Source: a virus. Taken from it: 39,683 nt of DNA. This document shows positions 278-39,683 of the stretch, piece after piece. Position numbers and translations under genes: made by a program. The stretch lies in IMG/VR virus record IMGVR_UViG_3300030106_005675. One strand, 5' to 3'. Numbering within the stretch: the first letter of the stretch is position 1; each line of letters opens with the position of its first letter. The notes below the pieces were generated by a model, which saw only the letters and a program-made list of their open reading frames with translations, had not been told where the DNA came from and searched no databases.

Positions 278-542
278 TTAGCCATCTTTTGCAAGAAGCA
301 AGTGTGCCGCAATGATGGAAACCTTCGGACTCAGGATTGACCTTGAAACTGGCTGTGTAGTGGCGAGTCGAGCCTTGGGCAATACCACCGGAAGGCTGGT
401 CTGCAAAAATTGAACCAACCTGTCTGCCAGCGTATTCAGCGATGTAGATACCGGTTTCAACGCGAGTGATTGAGAGCATTGAGAAAACATTGTTGAGGTT
501 TGGGGTCGCCCCCTGGTAAGAGTATGGCATACCAAAGGGCAA
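255..542 (-). CDS. Hypothetical protein (95 aa)
   Basis: Its amino-acid composition looks more protein-like than the alternative frame 278..535. It is co-oriented with its neighbours and overlaps the downstream ORF by 23 nt. Confidence 0.4.
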   Translation of the reverse strand: MPFGMPYSYQGATPNLNNVFSMLSITRVETGIYIAEYAGRQVGSIFADQPSGGIAQGSTRHYTASFKVNPESEGFHHCGTLASCKRWLNDFSSLL

Positions 543-550
543 AGCGCAAC

Positions 551-844
551 CTACAAGCTGTTGAGCTTAACAATTATTGCGGAAACCATGCCTACAAGCT
601 CATTTCTAGGAATCCCGCTATATTTTCTGGCAACATCCTCTACACATTCAGCGACAACAGCCCTGCCAAGTGGGATTGACGTGTCAACCGGGCAAACACC
701 TTTCAAATAATTTAAAGCAGAAATACGGAGCAATTCATTTCGTGTTGTGTTGCGTTCAGAGGCTTGTAGTTCAACCATTAATAATTCATCTTGAGAAAGT
801 GAAACCGAAACACGTTCTTTTTTAAACTGAGCTGAATTTTTCAT
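551..844 (-). CDS. Putative ribbon-helix-helix DNA-binding protein (97 aa)
   Basis: N-terminal ERVSVSLSQDELLMVELQASERNTTRNELLRISALNYL fits a beta-strand/helix/helix (CopG/Arc/MobC-like) pattern. It shares the base at 844 with the end of the helicase ORF. Confidence 0.45.
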   Translation of the reverse strand: MKNSAQFKKERVSVSLSQDELLMVELQASERNTTRNELLRISALNYLKGVCPVDTSIPLGRAVVAECVEDVARKYSGIPRNELVGMVSAIIVKLNSL

Positions 845-2821: not shown

Positions 2822-3017
2822 GAATTTTGTCGGGTTGTGATGGTAAATACTGCTGTAATAAAATGTTAACGTAAGCCGTTAAAGTTGGCACTCCAATAGG
2901 TTTTTTTTGCTGCAAAAGTTTTTTTACGCGAGGGTCTAATAAAATGTAATCAGATTCAGCTAGTCGGTGATGTTGAGAGTGCATGAAAGACTTGCAGGCT
3001 TTGCTACGATGCGGCAT
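2814..3017 (-). CDS. Hypothetical protein (67 aa), first gene of the leftward arm
   Basis: An 8-nt overlap couples it to 2453..2821. Its ATG at 3017 lies 24 bp from the divergent plus-strand ATG at 3042. Confidence 0.3.
   Translation of the reverse strand: MPHRSKACKSFMHSQHHRLAESDYILLDPRVKKLLQQKKPIGVPTLTAYVNILLQQYLPSQPDKIHD
2856..2947 (+). promoter_or_regulatory. Candidate control elements: TAATAAAATGT twice (2856-2866 and 2937-2947) and palindrome TTTTGC-T-GCAAAA (2905-2917)
   Basis: Exact 11-mer repeated 81 bp apart, each containing a TAAAAT -10-like hexamer, with a 13-bp palindrome between them. They lie next to the strand-switch point but inside ORF 2814..3017 if that ORF is real. Confidence 0.25.
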
Positions 3018-3041
3018 GCAACCAACCTTGTCAAGCCTTTC

Positions 3042-3671
3042 ATGACTTTAGAGCCTGTTCCAAACTTAATTTTTTACCCTGAATACCATAAATATCAATT
3101 AAATAAAAAATGGCTTGCCCGTTCTACAACAGAGGTTATAAACTTTGACATGCCAGAAGAAAAAAAATATTATATTACCAAATCAAAAGATGGCCCGAAT
3201 GGTTGGAAAAGGCGAGGAGATGCAGTTCATGATTTTTTGGAGAACTTTTTAAGGAAGCAATCATTCACAGTTGATGATCATTGGCGTGAGTGGACTGAAG
3301 CAATTGCAGACAATGAACTTTTAAAAACATCTAGTTTAATTGCTGCAGAATATCGACTTTGTGACAAGCAAAAATCAATGGGAGGATCATTTGATTTTTT
3401 ATTAAAAAAGCCTGATGGCACCTTGGTTTTAGGGGATTTAAAATCTGTTAGTAAATGCAGTTATGTTAATTCTAGAGAGTCTGCCACGGCACAATTAGGG
3501 TCATATGCACAAATGCTAAATAAAATCCATCCCAACCTATACATTCATCAATGTGCAACCATTGTTGCAGGGCCTGGAAAAACAAGAACTATTTATGATG
3601 ATGTTGATATATGTGTATCAAATTGGGAAGAAAAATGGGACAAATATCATTTGACGAGGAGACGCTGGTAG
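3042..3671 (+). CDS. PD-(D/E)XK (RecB/Cas4/lambda-Exo-like) exonuclease
   Basis: Motifs are SFDFLL ... LGDLKS (D...DxK), QLGSYAQML (QxxxY), and N-terminal YPEYHKY...STTEVIN. The track ORF begins at 2967, but I chose ATG 3042 to avoid overlap with 2814..3017. Confidence 0.65.
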   Translation: MTLEPVPNLIFYPEYHKYQLNKKWLARSTTEVINFDMPEEKKYYITKSKDGPNGWKRRGDAVHDFLENFLRKQSFTVDDHWREWTEAIADNELLKTSSLIAAEYRLCDKQKSMGGSFDFLLKKPDGTLVLGDLKSVSKCSYVNSRESATAQLGSYAQMLNKIHPNLYIHQCATIVAGPGKTRTIYDDVDICVSNWEEKWDKYHLTRRRW

Positions 3672-3675
3672 GTAG

Positions 3676-3720
3676 GGGTTGCGGTATGCCTTACGGCATG
3701 CCATGCTATGGCAGCAACCC
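3676..3720 (+). promoter_or_regulatory. Predicted RNA structure enclosing the start codon of the 309-aa ORF
   Basis: Inner hairpin ggtatgcc-ttac-ggcatgcc (3683-3702, 8 bp including one G-U). The outer helix gggttgc (3676-3682) pairs with gcaaccc (3714-3720). ATG 3708 sits in the bulge between them. Confidence 0.3.
3689..3720 (+). repeat. Copy A of a conserved 32-nt element (core 3691-3718)
   Basis: ccttacggcatgccatgctatggcagcaaccc matches the reverse complement of 39517-39548 at 28 of 32 positions. The 28-nt core matches at 26 of 28. Confidence 0.85.
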
Positions 3721-4637
3721 GCGCAAGCTTACTTCAAATGACAACAACAAATGGTGTCGCAACGACACAAGAAACTCAACTTAAATTTGGTAACACATCA
3801 ACCAACATAAAACAAAGTGAAGAATTTTATTTGTTAAAAAATTCAAAAGCAGCAATTGATGAAATTACAAAATGGGCAATTGGAAGAATTGCCCAACCGA
3901 ACACCAATATAGTAAAGGAAGGCAGAGCAAGAGGGCCATATCTGCCACTTACAATTCAAAACTATGAGGTTTTAGGTTTAAAATATTCGGAGGAAAATAA
4001 AAGCTATGGCATTTTACTTCGTGGCAAAATGAGCCTTTTTGAAAGTCCAGATAATTTAACAAAAACATGTGAAGTACGAATTTGGGCTAATAACATTAAC
4101 TTAGAAAAGAATAAATTGATTAAAGAATTTGTGGAGTGTTTAAATTTAAACCGTGAAAAAAACAATTCTAAATTAATCTTGCCATCATTTGAATTTTGTC
4201 TTGAAATGAGCAAAAAGGGGGAAAATTGGGAGCCATTCATATACTATCGATACCCAAAACAATCGGAGAGTGGAAATATGCAAGGTGTATTTCAGCAAGA
4301 ATTTAACGACAAAGAGTTAAAAATGATAAACTCATTTATTAAAAATGTTAAAATAAAAGAACCTGAGTATTTGAATTTTGAAAATTATGATTTTAGAAAA
4401 TCTTGGCGACAAGAGAGAAAAGAACAATTTGTTGATAATTATATCAAAGGTTCTAACTTGTGGAAAGAATATAATTGGCATTTAGACAAGATTAATTTTT
4501 TAGAAGCCAATTCTGATGAGAACGCAAGCAAGTTAGATTCATTAAGAATAAGTCTTAATGAACTTAAGAATTTGCTTGACAAAAACTATAGAAATGGTGA
4601 CAACGCATTAGATTATTGCAAAAAACAAAACATTTAA
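3708..4637 (+). CDS. Hypothetical protein (309 aa), A/T-rich orphan
   Basis: Long ORF in the plus-strand module. The protein is rich in K, N, I, F and E, and the DNA is visibly more A/T-rich than the structural genes. No motif recognised. Confidence 0.6.
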   Translation: MAATRASLLQMTTTNGVATTQETQLKFGNTSTNIKQSEEFYLLKNSKAAIDEITKWAIGRIAQPNTNIVKEGRARGPYLPLTIQNYEVLGLKYSEENKSYGILLRGKMSLFESPDNLTKTCEVRIWANNINLEKNKLIKEFVECLNLNREKNNSKLILPSFEFCLEMSKKGENWEPFIYYRYPKQSESGNMQGVFQQEFNDKELKMINSFIKNVKIKEPEYLNFENYDFRKSWRQERKEQFVDNYIKGSNLWKEYNWHLDKINFLEANSDENASKLDSLRISLNELKNLLDKNYRNGDNALDYCKKQNI

Positions 4638-4646
4638 TTCTTCAAT

Positions 4647-4859
4647 TTGCATATTATGAATTCACATTTTCTTCCAGAGCCTTTAGACGAATTTTTTACG
4701 TCACAATGTCAGCGTTATGACTGTTACCCATTGCGTTTAACTAAAGACGAAATATCACTACTTGTGTCTTTAGTTTGTGATGCTTACGACAGTGTAGACG
4801 AAGAAAAACTTAAAACTATTCGCTCTATTGACAACAAACTAACTTCGCTTTTATCATGA
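4647..4859 (+). CDS. Hypothetical protein (about 67-70 aa)
   Basis: The track start at 4647 is TTG, and ATG 4656 is more likely. Its stop overlaps the next start (ATGA at 4856-4859). Confidence 0.45.
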   Translation: MHIMNSHFLPEPLDEFFTSQCQRYDCYPLRLTKDEISLLVSLVCDAYDSVDEEKLKTIRSIDNKLTSLLS

Positions 4860-5086
4860 ATCCACGACTTAAACCCATGATCCCTGCCAAAACACGCAAG
4901 CCTTTCAGTCAAAAAAACTTTTATGGCAAAAAGTCAAGCACTTTAAAAAATGCATCCATTTCTATTATAATTTGGGTCATGTTATCAATGGGGTTTTGGC
5001 ATGCGTTGACAACTACATTGCACGATATGACTTTGCGCGACTGTCTGTATGGAATCCAAAAAGCCTGCGATGCACTCAACAAATAG
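4856..5086 (+). CDS. Hypothetical protein with one hydrophobic segment (76 aa)
   Basis: ASISIIIWVMLSMGFWHAL is a putative TM helix. The ORF is coupled to the upstream ORF. Confidence 0.4.
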   Translation: MNPRLKPMIPAKTRKPFSQKNFYGKKSSTLKNASISIIIWVMLSMGFWHALTTTLHDMTLRDCLYGIQKACDALNK

Positions 5087-5504
5087 CTTTTCTTTTACTG
5101 TTTTGGGCAAGCCCGCACCGCAGGGAAGCAAAACTTACTTGGGCCATGGCATGAAAGAAGCGTCAGACCGTTTGCCATCATGGCGGTCTGATATAAGAGC
5201 TAAGGCCGAGGGGTTGCTACCTAGCAAGTGGCATGCCATACTGCCTATGCAGATTGATGTTGAATTTTTATTCCCTCGTCCTCAGTCTGATTTTCGCTCA
5301 AATGGTCAACTGAAACCATCGGCCCTAAAACACTGCACAAAACGAGTTGGCGACTTAGACAAGTTAACCAGGGCTTTGTGCGACGCTTTAACTGGCCTTT
5401 GCTATCACGATGACTCGCAAATTATCCGCATCAACGCTATTCGACGCTATGCAACCGAACACGAACAACCCTCCGCAATCATCACCATTACAGCCATTAA
5501 TTGA
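5049..5504 (+). CDS. rusA: RusA-family Holliday junction resolvase
   Basis: F..LGKPAPQGSK near the N-terminus, and GDLDKLTRALCDALTGLCYHDDSQI matches the RusA D.D...K...D.L....DD.Q signature. The likely start is ATG 5070. Confidence 0.8.
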   Translation: MESKKPAMHSTNSFSFTVLGKPAPQGSKTYLGHGMKEASDRLPSWRSDIRAKAEGLLPSKWHAILPMQIDVEFLFPRPQSDFRSNGQLKPSALKHCTKRVGDLDKLTRALCDALTGLCYHDDSQIIRINAIRRYATEHEQPSAIITITAIN

Positions 5505-6234
5505 AGCTTTAATTACCTTTCACAAAACCGTTCCAGCAATTAACAAAACAGCAAAAGCACAGTACGGAAACTTTGCTGATCTCGAAACTGTCCTTTCAAC
5601 TGTCACCCCGCATCTAATCATAAACGGGCTGGCTGTCTCTCAGAGTTTTGAGCCAAGCACCCATGACAACAACCCTGTGCTTGTCACACAGTTGCTTCAT
5701 GTCAGCGGTGGTCAACTCATCAGCCGTTTGCCCATGGTCGTCGGTGGTCGGGGGAAAAATCCACTTCACGACTTTGGTGGAAGCTGCACTTATTCAAGGC
5801 GTTATAGCCTACTCGCCATCCTTGGCCTTACAGCCGACATGGATGTTGATGGTGACTTTGCCGATTCCGTAGAGGCCAAAACAGCAAAAGAACAAATTGA
5901 AAATCCTTCCCGCGAAAACGCTGAAGGACCTAAAGCAAAAAAAACTACCGTAAAAAAAGGTCAGATTCCCGGTTCATTGCCTAAATCTGATGCTAACAAA
6001 GCACCAAATGACATTTTAAATCAAAAAGAACGCGAATTATGTTTAGCGGTGCTTGACGAATTAGATGACAAAACACTCGACGATTTTTGTGAATCTTTCA
6101 GGGAAGCATTCCCAGGCTCAATTATTGTTTCAGATGAAATTCAGACTTACGAACATTTGGCTTTTATTAACCACTGGCATAAAGACAAAAAATTTGATAA
6201 AACTAACCTAGCAGTCCCTTTGGAGCTTGATTAA
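5410..6234 (+). CDS. erf: ERF-family single-strand annealing protein
   Basis: QYGNFADLETVLSTVTPHLIINGLAVSQ ... SRRYSLLAILGL resembles the ERF core. The C-terminus is acidic and K-rich low complexity. The true start is probably downstream (for example ATG 5449) because 5410 overlaps rusA by 95 nt. Confidence 0.65.
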   Translation: MTRKLSASTLFDAMQPNTNNPPQSSPLQPLIEALITFHKTVPAINKTAKAQYGNFADLETVLSTVTPHLIINGLAVSQSFEPSTHDNNPVLVTQLLHVSGGQLISRLPMVVGGRGKNPLHDFGGSCTYSRRYSLLAILGLTADMDVDGDFADSVEAKTAKEQIENPSRENAEGPKAKKTTVKKGQIPGSLPKSDANKAPNDILNQKERELCLAVLDELDDKTLDDFCESFREAFPGSIIVSDEIQTYEHLAFINHWHKDKKFDKTNLAVPLELD

Positions 6235-6444
6235 TTGGAAGAAAAATGGATTTCAAAAGCAAAACGTTTAAATGATGCGCAATTAAATGCTGATAAAAAA
6301 CGCCGTGATCGTCATTTTCAAGTCCGTTTAGAACCAGATTTGGCTGCAAGCTTACGGCATTTTATGGAAAAAAGAGATTACAACGTTAACCAAGCTCTCA
6401 ACGTCATCATTTCTCAATTCTTCAGAGGAAACCCCCATGCTTAA
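6235..6444 (+). CDS. Small RHH-like protein (69 aa)
   Basis: TTG start. HFQVRLEPDLAASLRHFMEKRDYNVNQALNVIISQFF fits a strand-helix-helix pattern. It overlaps the ssb start by 8 nt. Confidence 0.4.
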   Translation: MEEKWISKAKRLNDAQLNADKKRRDRHFQVRLEPDLAASLRHFMEKRDYNVNQALNVIISQFFRGNPHA

Positions 6445-6802
6445 TCTCACAGCCATTGGCCACGTTGGCATTTCCCCACAGCAAAAAACATTTGAGTCAG
6501 GGAGAACAGTCGTAAATTTTACGCTTGCTGTTAATCACAAAAACAAAGGCGAAGATACTGTTAGTTGGATTAATTGTTCTATTTGGGGGGCACGCGGCGA
6601 AACTATTATGCGTTTTGTTAAAAAAGGCGACAAATTATGTGTGAATGGAGAGGCACAATTAACTAAAAGCAATGATGAAGATGCAAACACATATTTAAAC
6701 CTAAATGTTCAAAATTTTACATTTTTAAATTCTAAAACTAATGACAATTCTGAATCTGATGACACAATTCCTGTAGCGCCTATACAGCGTCGCCGATTTT
6801 GA
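6437..6802 (+). CDS. ssb: Single-stranded DNA-binding protein
   Basis: OB-fold signature VSWINCSIWGARGETIMRFVKKGDKLCVNGEAQL. The acidic tail is SESDDTIP. Confidence 0.85.
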   Translation: MLNLTAIGHVGISPQQKTFESGRTVVNFTLAVNHKNKGEDTVSWINCSIWGARGETIMRFVKKGDKLCVNGEAQLTKSNDEDANTYLNLNVQNFTFLNSKTNDNSESDDTIPVAPIQRRRF

Positions 6803-6816
6803 CATAGGGGGGCATC

Positions 6817-6909
6817 AAGCGCACAACCCGTGCTGTGGGTTTAGTACATGCCCTCAGTGTGCGCTTTGTGTAAGTTGCAAAACAAGTTTTTTTGAGTTGT
6901 CTTGTTTTG
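6817..6909. terminator. Nested inverted repeats at the convergent junction (candidate bidirectional terminators)
   Basis: aagcgcaca (6817-6825) pairs with tgtgcgctt (6858-6866), and caaaacaag (6878-6886) pairs with cttgttttg (6901-6909). The loops are long and there is no clean U-tract, so terminator function is uncertain. Confidence 0.3.
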
Positions 6910-7093
6910 TCCCCTTTCCCTAAAATAAATGTTGTTGCTGATTTTACTCATGAAAAATCTTGGCGTTACCTATGCGTTCCATGATGGCAATTGGCAATGG
7001 TGTGTCGAATATGCGGGCATGAAACGTTGCCATCGCCAAGACTGGCAAGCTCAACACCAGCACGAATATTTTATGCACACTCGATGCAGCGGC

Positions 7094-7312
7094 TTAAGGC
7101 GCGTCATCAAGCATTCCAGCATCTAGCTCAGCAACCCGGCCAACAGCTTGTTTTAATAATCTCGTTTGATGCCAATGCTGGCGAACCAGGGCCACGGTGA
7201 GGCCTTTTAGAATTTCAACATCTGCACAGCCCTCAACTTCCCTTACACTGCGCTCTAGCTCTAATTCCTCTTCAAGGCTTTGATTGACGATCATCCAATC
7301 TGCCCATCCCAT
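7094..7312 (-). CDS. NblA-like small helical protein (72 aa), tentative
   Basis: SLEEELELERSVREVEG...ILKGLTVALVRQHWHQTRLLKQ parallels the NblA pattern as I recall it (sLEQQF.l..f..qV ... L...l.RQ.m..en.lk). AGGGGG lies 8 nt upstream of the ATG. Confidence 0.4.
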   Translation of the reverse strand: MGWADWMIVNQSLEEELELERSVREVEGCADVEILKGLTVALVRQHWHQTRLLKQAVGRVAELDAGMLDDAP

Positions 7313-7511
7313 GAGAGCCCCCTAAGGTGCATTTTTCTGAATGGTAAGGTCCGTTTTGCTGTATGTGAATAGCATCATGCACCCAAGGGATAAGCCACGC
7401 ATGAACTGGAAAGCAATTTTGCCAATTGTCAGGGTGAGCACAATTTAAAATAACAGACGTCCAAAATGCCGTCAAAAAACTCCACAGCCAATAAAAATCA
7501 GCCATCATCAA
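7272..7511 (-). CDS. Hypothetical Trp-rich protein (79 aa)
   Basis: The ORF overlaps both neighbours (14 nt and 41 nt). Its N-terminus FYWLWSFLTAFWTSVIL is hydrophobic. Confidence 0.3.
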   Translation of the reverse strand: MMMADFYWLWSFLTAFWTSVILNCAHPDNWQNCFPVHAWLIPWVHDAIHIQQNGPYHSEKCTLGGSHGMGRLDDRQSKP

Positions 7512-8226
7512 CCAAAATTACCCAACCAGTTCTAGCCCCCTCAACCTCAAATCGTTGTTTAAAATATGATTTACGCACGCGAATTTGATAGCCTGTTTTT
7601 TTATGATCATGTCCGCCAACATCAACCAAAGGGAAACCAGCGGGGTCGGACATTATCCAATTTTGATCATCGCTATTTTTGCCGGTGTAACCCGTGATTA
7701 CGCTCCAATGGCCACAGTTAAGACGGTTGCATCGTGGCGCTTGGCCTTTTGTTAAATTGCCTTGATGTAGCCATCCCACCAAAACAGGGCGACCGCGTTC
7801 GATTTCTAATTCTAATAATGTGCCGTCACCATCTTGCCTGAAATTTGCATTTAGGCCTAAAGACCGCAAAGTTTGCAAATGAGCCCAAACCGATGTTGTA
7901 TCGCCATATTTGCGCCTTATTTCATTATATTCATCATCTGTTTTAATTTTTCCCCAAAAAGCCGCCACCATGGCAGCGGAGGAGCTGAAGCACTCCCTAT
8001 ATCCATAACCGGAAGCGTTATCGTGCTGACTGAAGTAGGGCATAAAAATTTCTTGGTCGATGCCGCTTGCGCGCCAAGCCTCAAACCAAGCCGCGTTTTC
8101 ATCAAGTAATTCCTTCGGCAAGGAGCTTTCAAGTTCTGCAATTGCAGCCAATTGATGGGGCGAGCCACGAAAAAAATGGAAAAAACTGAGCAAATTAAGA
8201 GACACGATGAATATCCTAAGTTTCAC
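7498..8226 (-). CDS. Secreted or signal-anchored papain-like cysteine peptidase (C39-like/YvpB-like); endolysin candidate
   Basis: GTG start and hydrophobic N-terminus MKLRIFIVSLNLLSFFHFF. MPYFSQHDN...YRECFSSSAAMVAAFWG carries the catalytic Cys context and CGHWSVITGY the His context. Confidence 0.6.
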   Translation of the reverse strand: MKLRIFIVSLNLLSFFHFFRGSPHQLAAIAELESSLPKELLDENAAWFEAWRASGIDQEIFMPYFSQHDNASGYGYRECFSSSAAMVAAFWGKIKTDDEYNEIRRKYGDTTSVWAHLQTLRSLGLNANFRQDGDGTLLELEIERGRPVLVGWLHQGNLTKGQAPRCNRLNCGHWSVITGYTGKNSDDQNWIMSDPAGFPLVDVGGHDHKKTGYQIRVRKSYFKQRFEVEGARTGWVILVDDG

Positions 8227-8259
8227 TAATAAAACAATGAAAGCCTTTGCTTGTATTTT

Positions 8260-8448
8260 TCAATTTTGGTTTGGCAATTTGATTTGTTTTTTTGGTAGGA
8301 ACAAATTTGCCTTTACAAAATCAACAACTTTGTCGTCAACGGTATTGTCAGTCATTTTGCAATAAGCCTCTAGCATTTCGATAACCAAATTTTTTACACC
8401 CTGAGTTTTTAAGAATTTAAAAAGAATTGGCTTGATGAGCAAAAGCAT
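8260..8448 (-). CDS. Hypothetical protein (62 aa)
   Basis: Co-oriented ORF. The 10-bp palindrome cgaggcctcg (8451-8460) lies just upstream. Confidence 0.4.
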   Translation of the reverse strand: MLLLIKPILFKFLKTQGVKNLVIEMLEAYCKMTDNTVDDKVVDFVKANLFLPKKQIKLPNQN

Positions 8449-8472
8449 GACGAGGCCTCGATTTCAGCAATT

Positions 8473-8724
8473 CTAGTGCCGATCGCTGTGACCCTCTAAC
8501 CTGGCTACAGCCCTTTCTAGCTCTCCAATACGGGCAAACACCTCAACATCCTTTGTTTTTATGTCGCCATGTAGTACATCCAACCTATTTGCAAGATTGT
8601 CAACAGCAATCGTCAGCCGCACCAATGAATCCCTAGCATGACGGTTCTGGTGGCTAAGACCAGATACGCCAATGCCTGCGACTGTGATTGATGCCCCTGC
8701 AACAGCAGCCCAAACTTCAACCAT
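8473..8724 (-). CDS. Membrane-anchored coiled-coil protein (83 aa)
   Basis: N-terminal TM helix VWAAVAGASITVAGIGVSGL, followed by the heptad-like LVRLTIAVDNLANRLDVLHGDI...ELERAVARLEG. Confidence 0.5.
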   Translation of the reverse strand: MVEVWAAVAGASITVAGIGVSGLSHQNRHARDSLVRLTIAVDNLANRLDVLHGDIKTKDVEVFARIGELERAVARLEGHSDRH

Positions 8725-8749
8725 GGTTAGCCGCTTGCGTTAATTCATC

Positions 8750-9007
8750 ATGACAGATCCCACCGAAAACCAAGACCAAGACAAAGATTTTACGCCACTT
8801 GCTGATTTTGTCCGACTTGCAGTTTTGACGTGGTCAATTGCAATGCTAAGCCTGAATTATTTAGGCTACGTGAAGGCAATGGATCCAACCTTTCCCGCCA
8901 GTCTTCTAACTGGCACAATGGCATCGTTTGGCGTCAACGTGGGTCGCGCTAACACTAAGAAAAAAGAGGATGGCACTAGACTGGAACAAACACCATTAAA
9001 AAAATGA
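8750..9007 (+). CDS. Two-TM small membrane protein (85 aa), holin-like topology
   Basis: Acidic N-terminus, two hydrophobic stretches (FVRLAVLTWSIAMLSLNYLGYV and FPASLLTGTMASFGV) and a basic C-terminus. ATGA overlap with the next gene. Confidence 0.5.
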   Translation: MTDPTENQDQDKDFTPLADFVRLAVLTWSIAMLSLNYLGYVKAMDPTFPASLLTGTMASFGVNVGRANTKKKEDGTRLEQTPLKK

Positions 9008-9498
9008 AACCATTTGCATTGTTGTTTGCACTTGCTTTGCTAGCACCCTGTGCTCGCGCTGACATCACACATAGAATTTCATCAAGTATTCAACTGCAAG
9101 TTGATGGTGCCGGGTCTGTATCGACGCGAGTTCCTTCGGTTTATGCTGTTAGTGGCAATAACGTCACTTTGGGCACTGCTGGTGGGCTTGGCACCCTTAC
9201 ACCTGGCGCCGCTGTTGGCTTTACTCCCGCTGATTACTCTATTACTACTGCTGGCGATGCATTTAGTTTGACTGAATCTTATATTGAAGGTGACGCAACC
9301 CCAACAGTGTTATCAACAACAGTTACATCAGGAGTCGTGCCTGCGTTGCCAATATTTGGACAAAATACGACAACTTCCGGTGGTGTTCCGGGGTCACTTG
9401 CTGGAACAATTGCAACTGATGGTGCTTTACAAATTACAGCCGGAAGCTCTGGCACATCTGCAATTGGTCAAGTTATACAAGAGCTTACTATAAGATGA
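9004..9498 (+). CDS. Secreted beta-rich T/G/S-rich protein (164 aa), unknown family
   Basis: Signal peptide MKPFALLFALALLAPCARA followed by DI. No Cys in the mature part. ATGA overlaps at both ends. Confidence 0.6.
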   Translation: MKPFALLFALALLAPCARADITHRISSSIQLQVDGAGSVSTRVPSVYAVSGNNVTLGTAGGLGTLTPGAAVGFTPADYSITTAGDAFSLTESYIEGDATPTVLSTTVTSGVVPALPIFGQNTTTSGGVPGSLAGTIATDGALQITAGSSGTSAIGQVIQELTIR

Positions 9499-9926
9499 TA
9501 TTGTTACTTTTGATAGTGCTTGGCCTGTTTCCAACTGCTTCAGAAGCTGTTCCAGTCGTGCCGAATTTCCAGCAAGGTCTTATGAATTCGACAACAAAAA
9601 CAAAAACACAAGTAAAAGAAATTATTAATAGCTACGAATACAGGACAGGCTATGAGTATAGCGTTTCTGGCACAAATATTCAATCAATGAATGGTAAGCT
9701 CGCCCCTAAAAATTTAGATATTACAACTAACACGATAAATGGCATTTCTAGCCGATGGGTTGGGCTTGATGCGTCAAGCCGTCCAACATGGAATCTTGTT
9801 AACGAAGGCGCTAGTTTTCAATTTGTAGAAACTTTAAACGGGCCTGGTTTAGTCAATCATACTTTAATCGAAAGGACAACTGACATTGAATCTTTGACAG
9901 AAACGACTAGCACTTTTACTCAATGA
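9495..9926 (+). CDS. Secreted protein (143 aa), unknown family
   Basis: Signal peptide MILLLLIVLGLFPTASEA followed by VP. ATGA overlaps at both ends. Confidence 0.6.
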   Translation: MILLLLIVLGLFPTASEAVPVVPNFQQGLMNSTTKTKTQVKEIINSYEYRTGYEYSVSGTNIQSMNGKLAPKNLDITTNTINGISSRWVGLDASSRPTWNLVNEGASFQFVETLNGPGLVNHTLIERTTDIESLTETTSTFTQ

Positions 9927-10630
9927 GAAAGTTTTTGGCAGCTTTTTTTTTACTTGCCGCTCCTGTAAATGCACAAGTTAGTGGCACTGCTGCACCAGTT
10001 GCAAATAGCTCAGGCAGTGTAACCAATCAAGCTGTGCAAGTTGTGCCCTCTAGACAATTCAGTTATTTATACGGCAACGGCGTAAGTTGCCAAGGCGCAA
10101 CCTTAAACATAAACCCTTTTATTAGCACGACAACCAGTTGGGCTAATCCATATGAGGGGTTTTACAATGAACCCGTTTACGATACTTTAGATTTAGTTGG
10201 TGCTTTTGATCCTGAGGGCAACCCAATCCCTGACGGCGTACCTGATAACCCTGGAAACATTTTGTATTATCGGCCTATTAGAACCGGGCAGAAAACAAAT
10301 TTCTCAATTAATGGCGGTATCACTGCAACATTTTCAATCCCTTTGGACAATTCTCTTATTAAAGCATGTCGGCGCGCCGCGCAAAAAAGAGTCGAACTAT
10401 TAGAAGCAACTTTAGCCGATAAACGATTAAATTATGAACTTGCTAGAGTAAAAAATTGCGGCGAATTAATGAAAGCAGGGATAATTTTCCATCCCAAATC
10501 GCCATATGCAGCAATTTGCGCGGATGTAGTTCTAGTTAATCCCCCCGGTGTGATCCCTCCACATGTCCATAAAATCCCTATTTCCTCAGGCGACGTTGAG
10601 ACACTTGACGCTGAAAAACAGATTCAATAA
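9923..10630 (+). CDS. Secreted Cys-containing protein (235 aa), unknown family
   Basis: Signal peptide MRKFLAAFFLLAAPVNA followed by QV. Several Cys in the mature part. A T9 tract at 9943-9951 lies in the signal-peptide codons. Confidence 0.6.
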   Translation: MRKFLAAFFLLAAPVNAQVSGTAAPVANSSGSVTNQAVQVVPSRQFSYLYGNGVSCQGATLNINPFISTTTSWANPYEGFYNEPVYDTLDLVGAFDPEGNPIPDGVPDNPGNILYYRPIRTGQKTNFSINGGITATFSIPLDNSLIKACRRAAQKRVELLEATLADKRLNYELARVKNCGELMKAGIIFHPKSPYAAICADVVLVNPPGVIPPHVHKIPISSGDVETLDAEKQIQ

Positions 10631-11929: not shown

Positions 11930-12286
11930 CTAAAAACTGTATTTGGCGCCGATTTTCGTGCCAAATGACGGATCGTCATCAGTCGTAATAAAACTGACTT
12001 CGCCATAAAAATTTAATTTTTCAGTGGCGTTAACGCTGCCGCCAACTTTGGCCGAAACCTCCATTTCTGCGTCACCATCATCTGGCGCCACAATGGCAGG
12101 GCCTAGCTGGGCATAGTAGCCATAAGTTGAATCGCCGCCCTCATACCCAACATGAAGATCAGTAATTGAGCCGACATAATCGCCCCCTGAGTAGCCGCCG
12201 TTATTTTCGACGTTCACAAAGGGGCCGGCCAAGGCAGGCGCTCCAGCGAGCACACCACTGGCAACTATCAAAAACGCTTTGAACAT
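11930..12286 (-). CDS. Small outer-membrane beta-barrel-like protein (118 aa)
   Basis: Signal peptide MFKAFLIVASGVLAGAPALA followed by GP. Alternating hydrophobic strands and G/D/Y-rich turns. C-terminal ...GAKYSF has a terminal Phe beta-signal. Confidence 0.6.
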   Translation of the reverse strand: MFKAFLIVASGVLAGAPALAGPFVNVENNGGYSGGDYVGSITDLHVGYEGGDSTYGYYAQLGPAIVAPDDGDAEMEVSAKVGGSVNATEKLNFYGEVSFITTDDDPSFGTKIGAKYSF

Positions 12287-12982: not shown

Positions 12983-15900
12983 CTAAGAGCCCTTCAATGT
13001 TGCAACTTCTGTTTCTAAGGCTTCAATACGTTCCATTGCTTCTTGAAGTGCTTTGATAGCTTTCATATAGAGCACGGAATAACTTACGGATTTGGTAGTG
13101 GTTCCAAGATCTTTTCCTTCTGTGTCAGTGTCAGGCACTTCATTAACAAGACCGGGAGATATCGTTTCAATTTCTTGAGCAATAACACCAATCTGAGTAT
13201 GTGTTTGTCCTTCAATAAAATTATAGTTACGAACGCGGATACCTTTAATATCATCCCACTGTGAATTTGCATCGACAATATTCTCTTTTAGTTTAATGTC
13301 AGAAATAGCACCGTAGGAATTGTTAGTATTCGCAACGTTACCGTTAGCTAAAACATGAAAAGTCTGGGTCGAACCAAAATAAGCATTATAAAGACCAGTA
13401 TATTGACTGGCAGTTCCTTGGCACTGCGCATATATCATACCTGCATTTGCGGTTACATCATTTACCACACCATACCCAGTGCTTGAACTTATATTAATTG
13501 GTCCAGCCTGTATCGTGCCGCTTGTAGGATTTAAGATAAACTTGTCATTAGAACCATCAAATGCGCCAGTAGAATCTCCTCTAATAAATCCAGCTGTGTA
13601 AGAGTTACCACTGCTTTCAATCAAGAAAGATCCTGTAGCAAACTGCGCAGAGCCGTTAGCCATGAGCTGAGTGGTGGCGGTTCCAGCGTTGTTTTTACCT
13701 TGGAAGGCAACTCCAGACTGGAAGTTCTGAGCTACTAGTGCGGGGTAAGTGCCGCTTGTACTGTTACCATAAAACTCAGCGCCGATTCTGCCAGCAACGT
13801 AACCGCTATTACCTTTTACGGTTCCAGCAGCAGTAACAGCTAAATCAAAAGTTGCATTGCCCGAAGTATCTATTCCAAGCTTAGCGCTACCATTAACTTG
13901 CAAATAAACAGGATGATTAGTGGCAGATCCAAACTTACCGTCATAGCCGCTAGTAAAGAATCCAGCATTTGCATTAGCATTTACAATGCTTCCTGCTGCA
14001 ACAGTGCCTGGAGTTGCAGCAAGTCCTGCAGTTGTAATTGTCCCATCGGATAGGATTCGCAGCCGCTCGGTAGCATTAGCACTGCCATCAGCAGTAGTGG
14101 CAAACATTAGGCGGCCAGGCATATCGTTAGAGCCAGGAGTACCGTCTACCGATGCAGTAATTTTTGCTCCTGCTGTTCGCATGTCAGTGCCATCACCAGC
14201 AGAAAAAATAAGAGCGCCTAAAGAATCACCATTTTGCACAATGGTTGGAGTCCCACCCACAGTGCTATTTCTATGACGGCCTAACGACAATGTCCCACAA
14301 CGATTGGCGTCTGCTGTTCCAGCAGAGATAATGCTCATAATTGCATCACTGTTCGTTGCCTCTATTTGAATTTTGCCCTGAGGTCCATTGCCTACATGGT
14401 CTTCAACAATTCTGGAAACAGAAGTTCCTACTAAGATCCTGCCCGAGCTATCTATTCGCAGTCTCTCGGTACCACCTGCGGTGCCAAACCTTAGGTGTTG
14501 ATCGTTATGTGAATAATCAATATAACCGTCATACTCAGCAGCTCCAGAGGTGCCATCTGCAAAATAAATTGAGCTACTACTTGTGCTTCCACTTCTAATA
14601 GTCATTCCACAATGACTACTGTTAGCAATAGTAAATTGATCAGCTACGTTATTAAATCCCTTAGTCGTAGTCCCAATCATCAAGTGACCATCGCTATCTA
14701 TTCGCAGTCTCTCGCCACCATTAGTAACAAATGTCAAGTTATTAGCAGCACTTGCGATACTAAAATCGGTGTCACTGCCTCCGGCAGTCATTTGATTAGC
14801 ACGCCCTACATATCCTACAGTTGTTGTCCCATTACTTGCAAACCAACGATCATATAAATAATGATAAATTTGACCATCTGATAAGATCTTAAATTTTTCC
14901 GTACCTGCAGTTTTGATACTTACGTTATCAAAATTAGAAGTACCTGTGTTGCCCGGATTATTGATAAAAAATCCTGTAACAGCACTGTCACTACTTCTGG
15001 TACCTTGAAAACCAACTGCTTCACCGGAAACGTGAAATTCACCATAAATGGTTTCTTTACCAAACCTGCTAACAATACCGCTACCAGAACGATAGGCATC
15101 AATCTTATATGAAGGAGATGTTGTCCCCACGCCAAGATTTCCTGAGCTATCTATTCGTATCCGCTGAGCCATACTTCCACCAGAAGGCCTAGTATTAAAA
15201 GCAATTGCACCTTCGTTATTAGTGTGACTTACATTAATAAATTGAACTTGGCTTGTACCTTGCCCTTGAGCATCAACACCCTCGATAACCATTGAGTTAT
15301 TATCAGTGGTATTTGTATTCTGCAGGTACAAATATCCACCAACAGTAGAAGCTGCACCAGAGAGCTTGGCATTAGTTTCTCCAGAACCAGATACGATTAA
15401 CTTTTGATCTGGATTGCTGTCGCCTATCCCAAAATTTCCACTGCTTGTGACACGAAATCGCTCTATGCCCGCAGTTTCAACAGAAACCGTATCTGCAGCA
15501 GGAAATCTAATCGCTGTATTAGTATCACCAGCATGAATTATCTTATCAGAAAGCGTTAAATCGCCGCCATTGGCCACAGTTAGCCCGCTGCTGTTTATTT
15601 TTAATCGCTCAGAACCGCCAGTTGCTACAGCAAATTCATCAGCGCCAGGTTGAAAAATTCCTGAATTTACGTCACCGTTTAAAATTAAAGATGGCGCAGA
15701 TGCTGAACCGGCTGTTAAATTTAGAGATTGATTAAACGTCCAACAATCGGTTGAATTAACCCATAATAAAGTCTTGTCGGTTGCTCCTTTAAGAGTTATT
15801 CCGCCACCATCTGCAGTTGTATCGCTAGGCGTAGAAACAACCCCTAATTCTATATTTTTGTCGTCAACTTGCAACGTTGTACTTTCAATAATTGTGCTTG

Positions 15901-28898: not shown

Positions 28899-29279
28899 TT
28901 AGAGCCTCAGTAGCAATTGATATGATAAAGCAATATTATCTTGTTCAATTGTTTTTACAATAATAATTTGATGAACTATGCCACCAATGACAACCCGGTC
29001 TTTTGTTTCGGGTGCGGTTGTAAGGTCAGCAGCGGCAATTGTTAGGCTTTTATCGCCCGATTGAATTAATTCGTTTATCGCTGATCCTGTAAGGGATTTG
29101 GTGAGCCGACTGCTAACATTTTCCAACACACCTGGAACTGTCGTATCACTTTCGCTTTCCGTGATTACGCCGGTTGTTGCGTTATAGCTACCAGCAGAAA
29201 CGTAACGAATCGTCACATCCCCGCCAACCTTGGCCATTGCGTTTTTAACAGCCTTGCGAACTGAACTAGCAATGCCCAT
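28899..29279 (-). CDS. Head closure / head-tail adaptor protein
   Basis: 126 aa in the connector block. Assigned by position only. Confidence 0.45.
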   Translation of the reverse strand: MGIASSVRKAVKNAMAKVGGDVTIRYVSAGSYNATTGVITESESDTTVPGVLENVSSRLTKSLTGSAINELIQSGDKSLTIAAADLTTAPETKDRVVIGGIVHQIIIVKTIEQDNIALSYQLLLRL

Positions 29280-36074: not shown

Positions 36075-37427
36075 TCAATATAAACGTATCCCGGTGCCCC
36101 TGCCCGCACGGGCATAAAGCATTGAAAACTCCCTATAAACAAGGTAGCCCAAGGCATCAACCATGTGGTCGTTACCTGCATCCTTGTCAGGCTCACCTTT
36201 GTCTGTGTAACTTTGCAGTTCTAAACATTCAATTAACCTTTTACAATTAGGCGCAACATGCAACCTTGTTTGGCCTTTGCCATTCTCCAAAAGAGCTTGC
36301 ACACTAGCCACACGATCACGAATTGGAGGATTTGCTTTAGGTGATTGATTGCTAAATCCATAAGATTCAAGAATTTGTATGTCTGTTCTAGATGCATTTG
36401 TTGACCTGGCAGAGCCAGACGCATCAGGGTAAACGTAAACAATACGTCCGTCAGCTTTACGTTTAATTTCTTTTGCAAGATCATCTGTGTCATGCGCCTT
36501 GGTAATTTCATCAACAATATGCAAAGCATTACCCAACCGAACACCAATAACCGCGCTCATATTGCCAATGTTGAAATCAACTCCAACTCTAAAAGGTTCA
36601 TTACTATATTTTGATAAAAGCAAAGTTTGAATATGTTTTTCTCTATTAAAACGATCATAAACCTGACCAGTTGTAAGATTGCAAAATTGCCCTTCTAAAT
36701 ATGCCTGCAATAAAGATGGATCATAATTAGCCTTAAGACGTTCTAAAAAATCTGGTGGCAAGTGCGGATTATCTGACGTTTTCATCCTTATTAATCGCCT
36801 GTCAATGCGTTGCTGCGCCTCTTCTGTTCCAAATGTGTTCCACATCCAGCGAAACCCCTCAGGAGTTGATGCTGCAGCAAATTGACGCACATTGCCAGCG
36901 CGTAAACGACCTAAAATTTTAGGAAATGCTTTATTTGCAATTGATGGCGGCACTGTATCAATTTCATCAGCTAAACACCAAGCTGCATTTATGCCAATGC
37001 AGCGTGTCCAATTTTCAAAACTACGACAAAGAATCTTTGTGTTGCCGCCAGGTAAATGCAAAACATATTCTGGCAACGGAGACGCTCTAAAGGTGTAAGG
37101 GACTTCATAATGCTCTAAAAAATTATCAAAATCAGTTTGAAAAATATCACGTATTAGCGGCCCTGTTGGTTCCATAACAATTCCAATGAAACCTTGGTTT
37201 GCTATTGCCAATGAAACAGCTTTGCTTACTAGCGACCTTGTCTTGCCGGCTCCATAACCTGCAGACAAGCCAATGATTTCAGTTGTTTGATCCTCTACAA
37301 AATCTAATTGCCCTGGATGTAAATCAGATTTAATTTTTTTAATTATTGATTCTGCATGTAATTGCGTTGGAGGCGTTGCAAACGCTAGCAACGGTTCAGA
37401 ATTAGTTAATCCTGTTAGTAATGTCAT
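36075..37427 (-). CDS. terL: Terminase large subunit
   Basis: Walker A is SAGYGAGKTRS and Walker B is WCLADEID. The C-terminal nuclease region has DHMVDALGY. Confidence 0.9.
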   Translation of the reverse strand: MTLLTGLTNSEPLLAFATPPTQLHAESIIKKIKSDLHPGQLDFVEDQTTEIIGLSAGYGAGKTRSLVSKAVSLAIANQGFIGIVMEPTGPLIRDIFQTDFDNFLEHYEVPYTFRASPLPEYVLHLPGGNTKILCRSFENWTRCIGINAAWCLADEIDTVPPSIANKAFPKILGRLRAGNVRQFAAASTPEGFRWMWNTFGTEEAQQRIDRRLIRMKTSDNPHLPPDFLERLKANYDPSLLQAYLEGQFCNLTTGQVYDRFNREKHIQTLLLSKYSNEPFRVGVDFNIGNMSAVIGVRLGNALHIVDEITKAHDTDDLAKEIKRKADGRIVYVYPDASGSARSTNASRTDIQILESYGFSNQSPKANPPIRDRVASVQALLENGKGQTRLHVAPNCKRLIECLELQSYTDKGEPDKDAGNDHMVDALGYLVYREFSMLYARAGRGTGIRLY

Positions 37428-39315: not shown

Positions 39316-39570
39316 TTAAGAAAGCTCCAATGGATGCAATGAATTTGAAAAATTAACTGTTAAACGATGAACATAATCATTGAAAGACTCGATTAAATCC
39401 TCATGATATTTATGTTCATCATTGGTCATAAGATCGTATAAAGCTTTACGAATTTGCAAAGCTTTTTCTAAACGCTGCTGGTCTGATCCAGCAAATTTAG
39501 TTGGTTTCATAGAAAGGTGTTGCTGCCGTAGCATGGCATACCGTAAAGCATCAGATTTAGTTGGTTTCAT
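39316..39570 (-). CDS. Hypothetical early protein with duplicated start region
   Basis: MKPTK occurs at residues 1 and 21 because of the 25-bp direct repeat. Either ATG (39570 or 39510) could be the start. Confidence 0.5.
   Translation of the reverse strand: MKPTKSDALRYAMLRQQHLSMKPTKFAGSDQQRLEKALQIRKALYDLMTNDEHKYHEDLIESFNDYVHRLTVNFSNSLHPLELS
39495..39519 (-). repeat. 25-bp direct repeat, copy 1 (atttagttggtttcatagaaaggtg)
   Basis: Exact match to 39555-39579. The minus strand reads CACCTTTCTATGAAACCAACTAAAT. Confidence 0.95.
39517..39548 (-). repeat. Copy B of the conserved 32-nt element (core 39519-39546)
   Basis: The minus strand reads ctttacggtatgccatgctacggcagcaacac, which matches 3689-3720 at 28 of 32 positions. 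Confidence 0.85.
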
Positions 39571-39579
39571 AGAAAGGTG
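39555..39579 (-). repeat. 25-bp direct repeat, copy 2
   Basis: Exact match to 39495-39519, with a 60-bp period. Confidence 0.95.
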
Positions 39580-39585
39580 CGGTCA

Positions 39586-39683
39586 TTAGTGGATTTCAGT
39601 GATAGTGGAGAAAAAGTCATTAAAGTTCCTCGTAATCAGGTGTTTCCTCAAACGGAACAGGTTGAAGATCAGGGTTTAAGGGG
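39586..39683. repeat. Terminal direct repeat, second copy of bases 1-98
   Basis: Exact identity read directly. Confidence 0.95.

Follow-up and report, generated by a model that had tools for sequence, protein, structure and literature searches.

Putative Operator-Bearing Promoters in a Marine Cyanosiphovirus-Like Phage Clade, and a Probable Case of One Promoter Rebuilt from Another

Introduction

In phages lambda (PL/OL and PR/OR) and P22 (Pant, with the ribbon-helix-helix repressors Arc and Mnt), a site of dyad symmetry is placed inside the core promoter, and such operators are repeated at promoters in divergent arms, so that one small phage protein could control both. Here we describe an element of similar design in an uncultured virus, IMG/VR record IMGVR_UViG_3300030106_005675; "the window" below is the whole stretch of DNA that was analysed, 39,683 nucleotides (nt) long. 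A 33-nt sequence near one end of the window (copy A) recurs in inverted orientation near the other (copy B), in the oppositely transcribed arm. The interpretation that we favour, with a probability of roughly three in four, is that A and B are the cores of two promoters belonging to a phage-specific promoter/operator family, and that B was rebuilt by copying from A. As in lambda and P22, the symmetric site lies inside a promoter-like core and is found in both arms, and small proteins that by eye look ribbon-helix-helix-like are encoded nearby, as Arc and Mnt are in P22. The differences are that the palindrome here is 10 base pairs (bp) long and sits at most cassette promoters (three to eight per early region) rather than at two or three control points, that no integrase or lysogeny module was seen, and that the repressor is only a candidate.

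The motif also recalls the stoperators of mycobacteriophage L5 and the start-associated sequences of Cluster K, which are likewise short, repeated, intergenic, oriented with transcription, close to gene starts and confined to one cluster. The L5 stoperators are asymmetric 13-bp sequences that are not tied to -35 and -10 boxes, whereas the motif described here is symmetric and keeps a fixed register in a promoter-like frame; the Cluster K sequences differ from it in overlapping the ribosome-binding site. The middle promoters of phage T4 (a MotA box combined with a sigma-70 -10 box) are, like these sites, a phage-specific class in which a good -10 region is joined to a non-canonical upstream element in front of non-structural genes, and the TTGCnn box found here resembles the TGCTT of the MotA box. 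Unlike the T4 arrangement, however, the TTGC box stands at -35 distance (17-nt spacer) and not at -30, and the palindrome over the -10 is the most conserved part. Finally, the GC stems at the very 5' end of many predicted transcripts of the family are reminiscent of the stabilising leader of Escherichia coli ompA and of boxB in lambda nut, although copies A and B have no such hairpin and neither an N-like protein nor a boxA was identified here. Set beside these systems, the element is of an ordinary kind, an operator-bearing promoter, newly described for a marine cyanosiphovirus-like clade; it is no new class.

Results

Two Copies of One Sequence in Opposite Arms

The sequence shared by A and B is the strongest inverted repeat in the window (91% identity), and its 28-nt core pattern occurs at only two places, where none is expected from 100 shuffles. 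An initial annotation, made from the letters of the sequence, had proposed a conserved element of 28–32 nt present once in each arm. Self-comparison of the window bears out the match itself, over 33 nt and with no such match expected by chance, and both copies do lie in sense orientation and adjoin gene starts. The claim of a single occurrence per arm did not hold, as the shared core turned out to belong to a family with three full sites in the window. The sites concerned are as follows.

3686–3718, plus strand: stretch of copy A shared with copy B (30/33 identity with 39519–39551, minus strand).
3679–3707, plus strand: copy A as a complete predicted family promoter, with -35 box TTGCGG (3679–3684), 17-nt spacer and -10 box CATGCT (3702–3707) preceded by TG.
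3694–3703, symmetric: operator-like palindrome of copy A, CGGCATGCCA (consensus TGGCATGCCA).
3682–3691: degenerate second operator copy within copy A, CGGTATGCCT, which pairs with the first palindrome.
39519–39551, minus strand: copy B, putative A-derived promoter core, with operator CGGTATGCCA (39543–39534) and -10 box CATGCT (39535–39530).
521–549, minus strand: copy C (promoter P1, predicted), with -35 box TTGCGC, 17-nt spacer containing TGGTATGCCA (534–525) and -10 box CATACT (526–521).
5214–5242, plus strand: best-scoring site, embedded in rusA, TTGCTA-17-CATACT with a perfect palindrome at 5229–5238.

The pattern TTGC-N12-GGYATGCCAT is matched three times in the window (copy A, copy C and the rusA site), against 0.06 matches expected. 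A position weight matrix (PWM) trained only on relatives scores these three at 29.1, 24.7 and 40.9, respectively, with a shuffle maximum of 12.2. The operator cores of A and B both conform to (T/C)GG(C/T)ATGCCA.

The resemblance of A to B goes well beyond that among family members. When either copy is compared with the 756 in-register 33-mers from relatives, the best agreement is 22/33, as against 30/33 between the two. Because this similarity reaches positions that are unconserved in the family, copy B is a specific paralogue of A. The 21-nt core common to A and B has no match in the viral contig collection, which indicates that the 33-nt unit is private to this lineage. Homology was sought past the 33 nt as well; there the two gene starts are alike at 13 of 16 positions, which is not significant, as 8%–27% of the gene starts in the window score equally. 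Nine loci from different samples, NCBI MK892830.1 among them, have the A/B structure without a single base difference, which rules out an assembly artefact.

A Putative Promoter/Operator Family in Related Viruses

Related viral contigs were collected through the nuclease gene (42%–47% identical at the protein level); the same gene led to no relatives above ~50% identity. The perfect 10-bp palindrome recurs three to eight times in the early region of each, with contiguous half-sites (TGGCA/TGCCA) and perfect dyad symmetry. The family consensus built around it, GgTTGC-N11-TGGCATGCCAtaAT, has a -35-like box, a 17-nt spacer and a palindrome overlapping an extended -10 (TGC-CATAAT); a short leader follows, often opening with a GC hairpin, and then an ATG ~35 nt after the -10. 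In 116 of 132 unique perfect palindromes a TTG lies exactly 15 nt 5' of the palindrome, which runs into CATAAT (class 2). Twelve further sites have another register (class 1), in which the palindrome abuts a near-consensus TTGACa box and the CATAAT box comes 5–7 nt downstream. Since the palindrome thus occurs in two registers relative to the -10, it behaves as expected of a separate protein-binding operator and not of part of the -10 itself.

All family sites are co-oriented with the flanking genes, and of the 96 sites that fall outside coding sequence, 90 are followed by an open reading frame (ORF) beginning with ATG, the median distance from the -10 being 35 nt (interquartile range 30–39). 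Comparison across the clade shows that the architecture, which is promoter-like, is conserved along with its position and orientation. The layout is of sigma-70 type in its -35/-10 spacing of 17 nt, in the A at position 2 and T at position 6 of the -10, and in the TG at -15/-14. A sigma-54 reading of TGGCA...TTGC was rejected, from the sequence itself, on the spacing and order of the elements. The initial annotation had suggested a search of relatives for its element; what proved to be conserved there is the promoter/operator core, the near-identity over 32 nt being specific to this lineage.

The motif was found in 96 IMG/VR stretches, 68 of which carry at least two cores (related uncultured marine siphovirus contigs). 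Across 185,579 bacterial and archaeal genomes the class-2 consensus gave one chance match only, and on this basis the motif is phage-specific. Literature searches with the palindrome or the accession number returned no description of it. Among cultured phages, Synechococcus phage S-CBS3 has two sense-oriented sites of the form TTGACC-16/17-(TGGTATGCCA)TA(G/C)T, and the motif is absent from S-CBS1, KBS-S-2A, MED4-184 and S-H1.

Near 26128 and near 28928, minus strand of S-CBS3 (NC_015465.1, our locus L160): family-like sites, one with the hairpin CCGGG-GCAG-CCCGG.

One of the two S-CBS3 sites lies directly upstream of gp41, a homologue of the HTH61 protein of the window. At the other, which has the hairpin, an ATG follows ~54 nt downstream of the annotated start of gp38, and this start is probably mis-called.

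The Sites after the Nuclease Gene, after p97 and within rusA

Relatives carry a family promoter directly after the stop codon of the nuclease gene, which is the position of copy A. One relative (L006) has CGCTGGTAGGT...CGGCATGCCAT in common with the window at this place, and two others (L008 and L017) have GGGTTGCGC-N9-TGGCATGCCATGCT. The comparison shows copy A to be orthologous to these putative promoters and, to judge from its parts, an intact promoter serving the first rightward cassette that follows the nuclease gene. Transcription is predicted to start near 3713–3716.

3738–4637, plus strand: p309, the gene driven by predicted promoter A; proposed start ATG 3738 (ORF finders call ATG 3708).

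The initial annotation placed a start codon, ATG 3708, inside copy A. The ATG is present, but it comes just after the predicted -10 and 5' of the predicted transcription start. We propose ATG 3738 as the start of p309 because its distance of 30 nt from the -10 fits the family interquartile range of 30–39 nt. The GC content of positions 4001–5000, in the p309 region, is 0.308 compared with ~42% for the genome, and no p309 homologue was detected by tblastn in 68 family loci, nor any Pfam or PHROG match. The gene was probably acquired recently, as a cassette that entered downstream of a conserved promoter.

A second short intragenomic match lies within p309, between 3884–3909 and 36524–36549 (both plus strand; 24/26, none expected by chance). 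The first copy is in the sense strand of p309 and the second in the antisense strand of the terminase gene, so that pairing between the mRNAs of p309 and terL could occur. Ahead of the p309 copy is a 9-nt inverted repeat (TGGGCAATT/AATTGCCCA), which suggests another template-switch product.

Copy C stands directly after the stop codon of p97, a position that matches P1 of the relatives. The rusA site falls within coding sequence (rusA, 5049–5504), in the ...LLPSKWHAILPM... region ~170 nt upstream of the start of erf. Both its TTGC box and its perfect palindrome are kept in the rusA genes of relatives at 47%–69% protein identity, which suggests an internal promoter/operator overlaid on the coding sequence.

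The initial annotation also noted a weak third copy at 3012–3023. This is a 12-mer that does not form a contiguous match, and 23 of 100 shuffles contain one as good at no more than one mismatch. It overlaps the annotated start of p67, in the leader region of that gene. The annotated p67 start is ATG 3017, and alignments with relatives begin at Met12 (ATG 2984), which is probably the true start, the annotated one being wrong. A promoter-like TTGACA-17-CATCGT at 3037–3009 (minus strand) would put the transcription start after ATG 3017.

Copy B and the Proposed Rebuilding of the p64 Promoter

Copy B precedes p64 and is bracketed by a direct repeat, X (39579–39549 and 39519–39489), of 31 nt at 94% identity, its first 25 nt exact, with a 60-nt period. 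The exact 25-mer occurs twice in the window, where no repeat of it is expected.

39316–39510, minus strand: p64 gene (84 amino acids if read from ATG 39570).
39549–39579, minus strand: X1, the upstream copy of the duplicated gene start, CACCTTTCTATGAAACCAACTAAAT(cTGaTG), with ATG 39570; it sits at the place of the -35 box.
39489–39519, minus strand: X2, the downstream copy, which is the native p64 leader and start (ATG 39510) and aligns with the leader of p64 homologues.

Repeat X duplicates the leader of p64, which has no ribosome-binding site, together with the start codon; as a result, an in-frame ORF of 84 amino acids (ATG 39570) running through the element coexists with the 64-amino-acid ORF (ATG 39510). 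Copy B itself has no -35 box (AAATCT stands there) and no hairpin in its 5' untranslated region, and its -10 is 19 nt from ATG 39510. Its full PWM score is negative, and its partial score, 10.2, is the fourth best in the window and inside the shuffle range (maximum 18.7).

A protein search with the 84-amino-acid form, p84, returned only itself and a pattern-based locus search nothing; tblastn against the family contigs later gave p64 homologues in 12 related contigs (47%–53% identical). Their synteny is identical: nuclease, p67-p122-helicase-p97-P1-gene-P2-p64 homologue-p82...p106-terL. In nine of the 12 contigs a complete promoter (GTTGCC-N10-TGGCATGCCATAAT, then a hairpin) is located 38 nt upstream of the p64 homologue, and the 3' part of the leader and the start codon of these homologues align with X2. 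From this synteny and the placement of the promoters in relatives, copy B occupies the ancestral P2 position and copy C that of P1. What B carries, from the spacer to ~+10, is sequence of A type, including a -10 of the CATG type, which occurs at A-orthologous sites; the P2 orthologues have CATAAT in eight of eight cases. Non-reciprocal copying from A to B, combined with a duplication of the gene start, best explains the near-identity of the two.

We propose that P2 was remodelled in this lineage. Copy A would have supplied 33 nt that extend from the spacer across the -10 to ~+10; the p64 leader and start would have been duplicated (25/31 nt), with one copy taking the place of the former -35 box, and the leader hairpin would have been lost. 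A single complex event of repair or template switching could have produced all of this, or gene conversion combined with a local duplication. The outcome resembles the templated insertions of FoSTeS/MMBIR type in that 33 nt appear to have been copied in inverted orientation from afar, together with the 25/31-nt duplication and a small deletion (the -35 box and leader hairpin), and in that junction microhomology at B is at most 1–3 nt. Unlike in that model, the case here is read from one product, and donor and recipient already shared a core of 10–14 nt, which makes homology-assisted conversion equally possible.

Out of 562 occurrences of the operator core in related loci, both strands counted, copy B is the only one with flanking direct repeats, and the event was therefore a one-off involving no mobile element. 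Searching metagenomes for repeat X returned 31 loci, all of them chance matches with no similarity to the window. On this account the near-identity of A and B is a historical accident of copying between two promoters and is no evidence for a functional unit of 32 nt; the putative functional unit is the ~10-bp palindrome with its -35 and -10 boxes. Copy B may still give weak transcription of p64 and HTH61 as a promoter lacking the -35 box, or it may be a scar that the phage tolerates.

Hairpins at the 5' End of Predicted Transcripts

Many of the family sites are followed by a short GC stem, of which the one after copy C is an example.

502–513, minus strand: 5'-terminal hairpin GGGG-GCGA-CCCC after copy C, starting ~7 nt after the -10, with a GNRA loop.

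A short GC stem with a 4-nt loop is found 5–14 nt after the -10 at 35 of 97 family sites, compared with 4.5% of control windows. Loops of GNRA type (GAGA, GGGA, GCGA, GCAA) account for 27 of the 97 sites and for 0.4% of controls. At least 12 different stems are represented (examples in relatives are those of L001 near 6630 and 7285 and of L007 near 3340). An ACTAC or CACACA tract lies between hairpin and ATG. Copies A and B have no GC-stem hairpin. Where present, such hairpins may lend stability to the mRNA 5' end or function in the manner of boxB.

Candidate Regulators

Three small proteins conserved in the module, p67, p97 and p69, look ribbon-helix-helix-like by eye.

6235–6444, plus strand: p69, small protein, ribbon-helix-helix by eye.
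551–844, minus strand: p97, weakly ribbon-helix-helix-like, an alternative candidate (Pfam RHH_1 at E = 0.011, below the cut-off).

By co-occurrence, p69 is the best candidate for the operator-binding protein: it has homologues in 37 family loci and in S-CBS3, where the motif is present, and is absent from S-CBS1, KBS-S-2A, MED4-184 and S-H1, where the motif is absent too. The alternatives are p67, p97 and HTH61. The p97 protein is present in 18 of 68 family loci, and its single-sequence AlphaFold model has an extended segment followed by helices (pLDDT 71), with no significant Foldseek match; confidence is low to medium for this model and for that of p67. Pfam gave no match for p67 or p69. 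The HTH61 gene lies just downstream of p64, and its homologue gp41 in S-CBS3 is directly preceded by a family site.

Genome and Phage Context

Bases 1–98 of the window are repeated exactly at 39586–39683, and this 98-nt overlap marks a circular assembly with a unit of 39585 bp. MK892830.1 is the same genome with the same unit length, and the genome is further present in many marine metagenome assemblies; one search of phage records returned no near-identical entry. Genes diverge at ~3000, the minus-strand arm running from 3017 through 1 and 39585 to ~10600 and the plus-strand arm from ~3040 to 10630.

By gene content the virus is a siphovirus, with structural and packaging genes for a terminase, portal, Mu-F-like protein, major capsid protein, tape measure protein, gpJ-like tail protein and tail fibres, and early genes for an AAA_25 helicase, a PD-(D/E)XK nuclease, RusA, an ERF annealing protein and a single-stranded DNA-binding protein (SSB). 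Among the ORFs scanned against Pfam there was no RNA polymerase, sigma factor, MotA/AsiA-like protein, integrase, invertase or cas gene, and no lysogeny module was seen. The terminase is 67%–74% identical to those of the cyanosiphoviruses S-H1, KBS-S-2A and MED4-184, and the helicase 34%–36% identical to those of Synechococcus phages S-CBS3 and S-CBS1. An ORF at 11930–12286 (minus strand) matches the Pfam cyanophage outer-membrane-protein-like beta-barrel domain (PF24653, E = 5e-39), which supports a cyanobacterial host; marine picocyanobacteria are the likely hosts.

Other observations on the genome are a match of the ORF at 9495–9926 (plus strand) to DUF6322 of Pfam (E = 1e-35) and diverged in-frame repeats within a tail-fibre gene of 1071 amino acids, at 15603–15697/15957–16051 (95 nt, 73% identity, spacing 354 nt) and at 14447–14474/14693–14720 (28 nt, 93% identity, spacing 246 nt). 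The latter are ordinary repeated fibre modules.

Discussion

A small DNA-binding protein of the phage most likely uses the palindrome as its operator. Transcription would be initiated ~7 nt past the -10 by the host RNA polymerase carrying its primary sigma factor, and the phage protein, as a dimer, would bind the palindrome; the latter sits inside the core promoter, and binding would for that reason most likely repress. An operator shared in this way would co-regulate the non-structural cassettes of both arms. Of the four roles raised in the initial annotation (operator, RNA-binding-protein site, processing site and module boundary), the operator comes closest, as a palindromic operator-like core does recur in a promoter-like context in both arms and in relatives; what has to be given up is the idea of a 32-nt functional unit.

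Several observations weigh against this account. The -35 (TTGCnn) and the -10 (CATGCT/CATACT) are non-consensus, and a generic sigma-70 scan flagged no site, the names promoter and operator being drawn from architecture and conservation. Nor is there a confident regulator, given that the RHH_1 match of p97 is sub-threshold, p67 and p69 have no Pfam match, the structure models reach low to medium confidence and nothing significant came out of the fold search. The conservation of the rusA site could partly reflect coding constraint (W-H-A). The present activity of B is uncertain, as it has no -35 box and its partial PWM score falls within the shuffle range. No ancestral or intermediate allele was found in any collection searched, and both the direction from A to B and the single event are what we infer from the present-day sequences.

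It could be argued that the palindrome is instead recognised by a factor that confers positive specificity (an activator or sigma-appropriating protein of the phage, for instance, or a host factor) and brings RNA polymerase to promoters that would otherwise be weak, and that the sites form a class of middle promoters; the history of copying from A to B would be unchanged. The class-2 boxes, being non-consensus and missed by the generic scan, fit such a view, as does a palindrome far more conserved than either hexamer, and the leftward early operon p67-p97, which has no preceding site, could encode the products that switch on the others. However, a protein bound in the spacer or over the -10, which is where the palindrome lies, normally blocks RNA polymerase, and the class-1 sites, in which the palindrome is flanked by near-consensus TTGACA and CATAAT boxes, should do without an activator. 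The spacer has the optimal length of 17 nt, so that no realignment of MerR type is called for, and no sigma or MotA/AsiA-like gene was seen among the scanned ORFs. We consider activation unlikely, while keeping it in view as the foremost competitor of the repressor-type operator.

A bolder and rather improbable version would treat TGGCATGCCA and the 5' GNRA hairpin together as a clade-wide transcription code. A p69-like protein would read the palindrome as a positive signal for specificity or anti-termination, in the manner of MotA or of N/nut, and the promoter cores would serve in addition as portable patches of homology that let ERF, nuclease and RusA rewire the cassettes. If this were true, the copy from A to B would be an example of these enzymes rewiring cassette expression via promoter cores.

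A role mainly in recombination, as a module-boundary site, was also among the proposals of the initial annotation, and would involve either cassette exchange or an inversion of the 3.8-kb replication module by which the sole -35 box would pass from A to B. The two copies form inverted repeats on either side of the divergent early region, 3.8 kb apart over the circular junction; they have clearly exchanged sequence, and the phage encodes an ERF annealing protein, a PD-(D/E)XK nuclease, RusA and SSB. The promoters also bracket variable cassettes: p309, with its atypical GC content, p80, p95 and HTH61 have no homologues in the family loci. This evidence that the promoters flank variable cassettes and that A and B exchanged sequence supports a boundary role indirectly, yet one arrangement is found on both sides in all 17–22 independent contigs, with no inversion isomer seen and no invertase or integrase among the scanned ORFs. 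The fixed -35/-10/ATG geometry and the strict co-orientation with genes are properties of promoters that recombination does not need, and any recombination at the sites would be a by-product of their similarity. A primary recombination function seems to us improbable.

Action as RNA, whether as a processing site, an RNA-binding-protein site or a start-codon hairpin, is more doubtful still, and we judge it very improbable. Both copies are in the sense strand near gene starts, and copy A can form the 8-bp hairpin within a 7-bp outer helix that had been described; this fold is indeed predicted (-31.9 kcal/mol), but it is not significant (z = -1.9, with nine of 200 shuffles folding equally well). 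Copy B, as the initial annotation stated, does not share the fold (z = 0.16). The hairpin arises because the degenerate second operator copy of A (GGTATGCC, 12 nt upstream of GGCATGCC) pairs with the first, and further pairing comes from GCAACC, close to where transcription is predicted to start, which is complementary to the -35 box GGTTGC. In relatives, the orthologous sites have no such pairing partners, and Rfam gave no match. Most of the element, and of the fold, would be situated 5' of the predicted start, and what is conserved at the core is a DNA palindrome at fixed distance from a -35-like box.

A de novo insertion at B unlinked to any ancestral promoter (an ectopic spacer of Cas1-Cas2 type, a miniature mobile element with target duplication, or a neutral templated-insertion scar) would suit the repeat-insert-repeat geometry (X of 25–31 nt, insert of 29–35 nt, 60-nt period), an insert that matches another place of the same genome in inverted orientation, and the second ectopic copy (3884–3909 = 36524–36549, 24/26), which suggests that such events occur here, but it can be set aside as most unlikely, because B is a single unit exactly at the promoter place of relatives, correctly oriented and in register, and continuous with the orthologous leader, because X was not found elsewhere and no other of the 562 core occurrences has flanking repeats that would point to mobility, and because no cas genes were seen among the scanned ORFs and marine picocyanobacteria, to our knowledge, generally lack CRISPR-Cas. 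The miniature mobile element was separately rejected, the 33-nt stretch having only two copies and no matches in the viral collection.

The reading of A and B as cores of two operator-bearing promoters, with B rebuilt from A, supplies a testable promoter/operator consensus for widespread uncultured marine siphoviruses related to cyanophages, for which the cultured S-CBS3 is a possible entry point. It improves the gene-start calls of p309, of p67 and of gp38 in S-CBS3, and the family sites mark cassette boundaries in these genomes. It would also provide a natural case of one promoter rebuilt from another within a phage genome.

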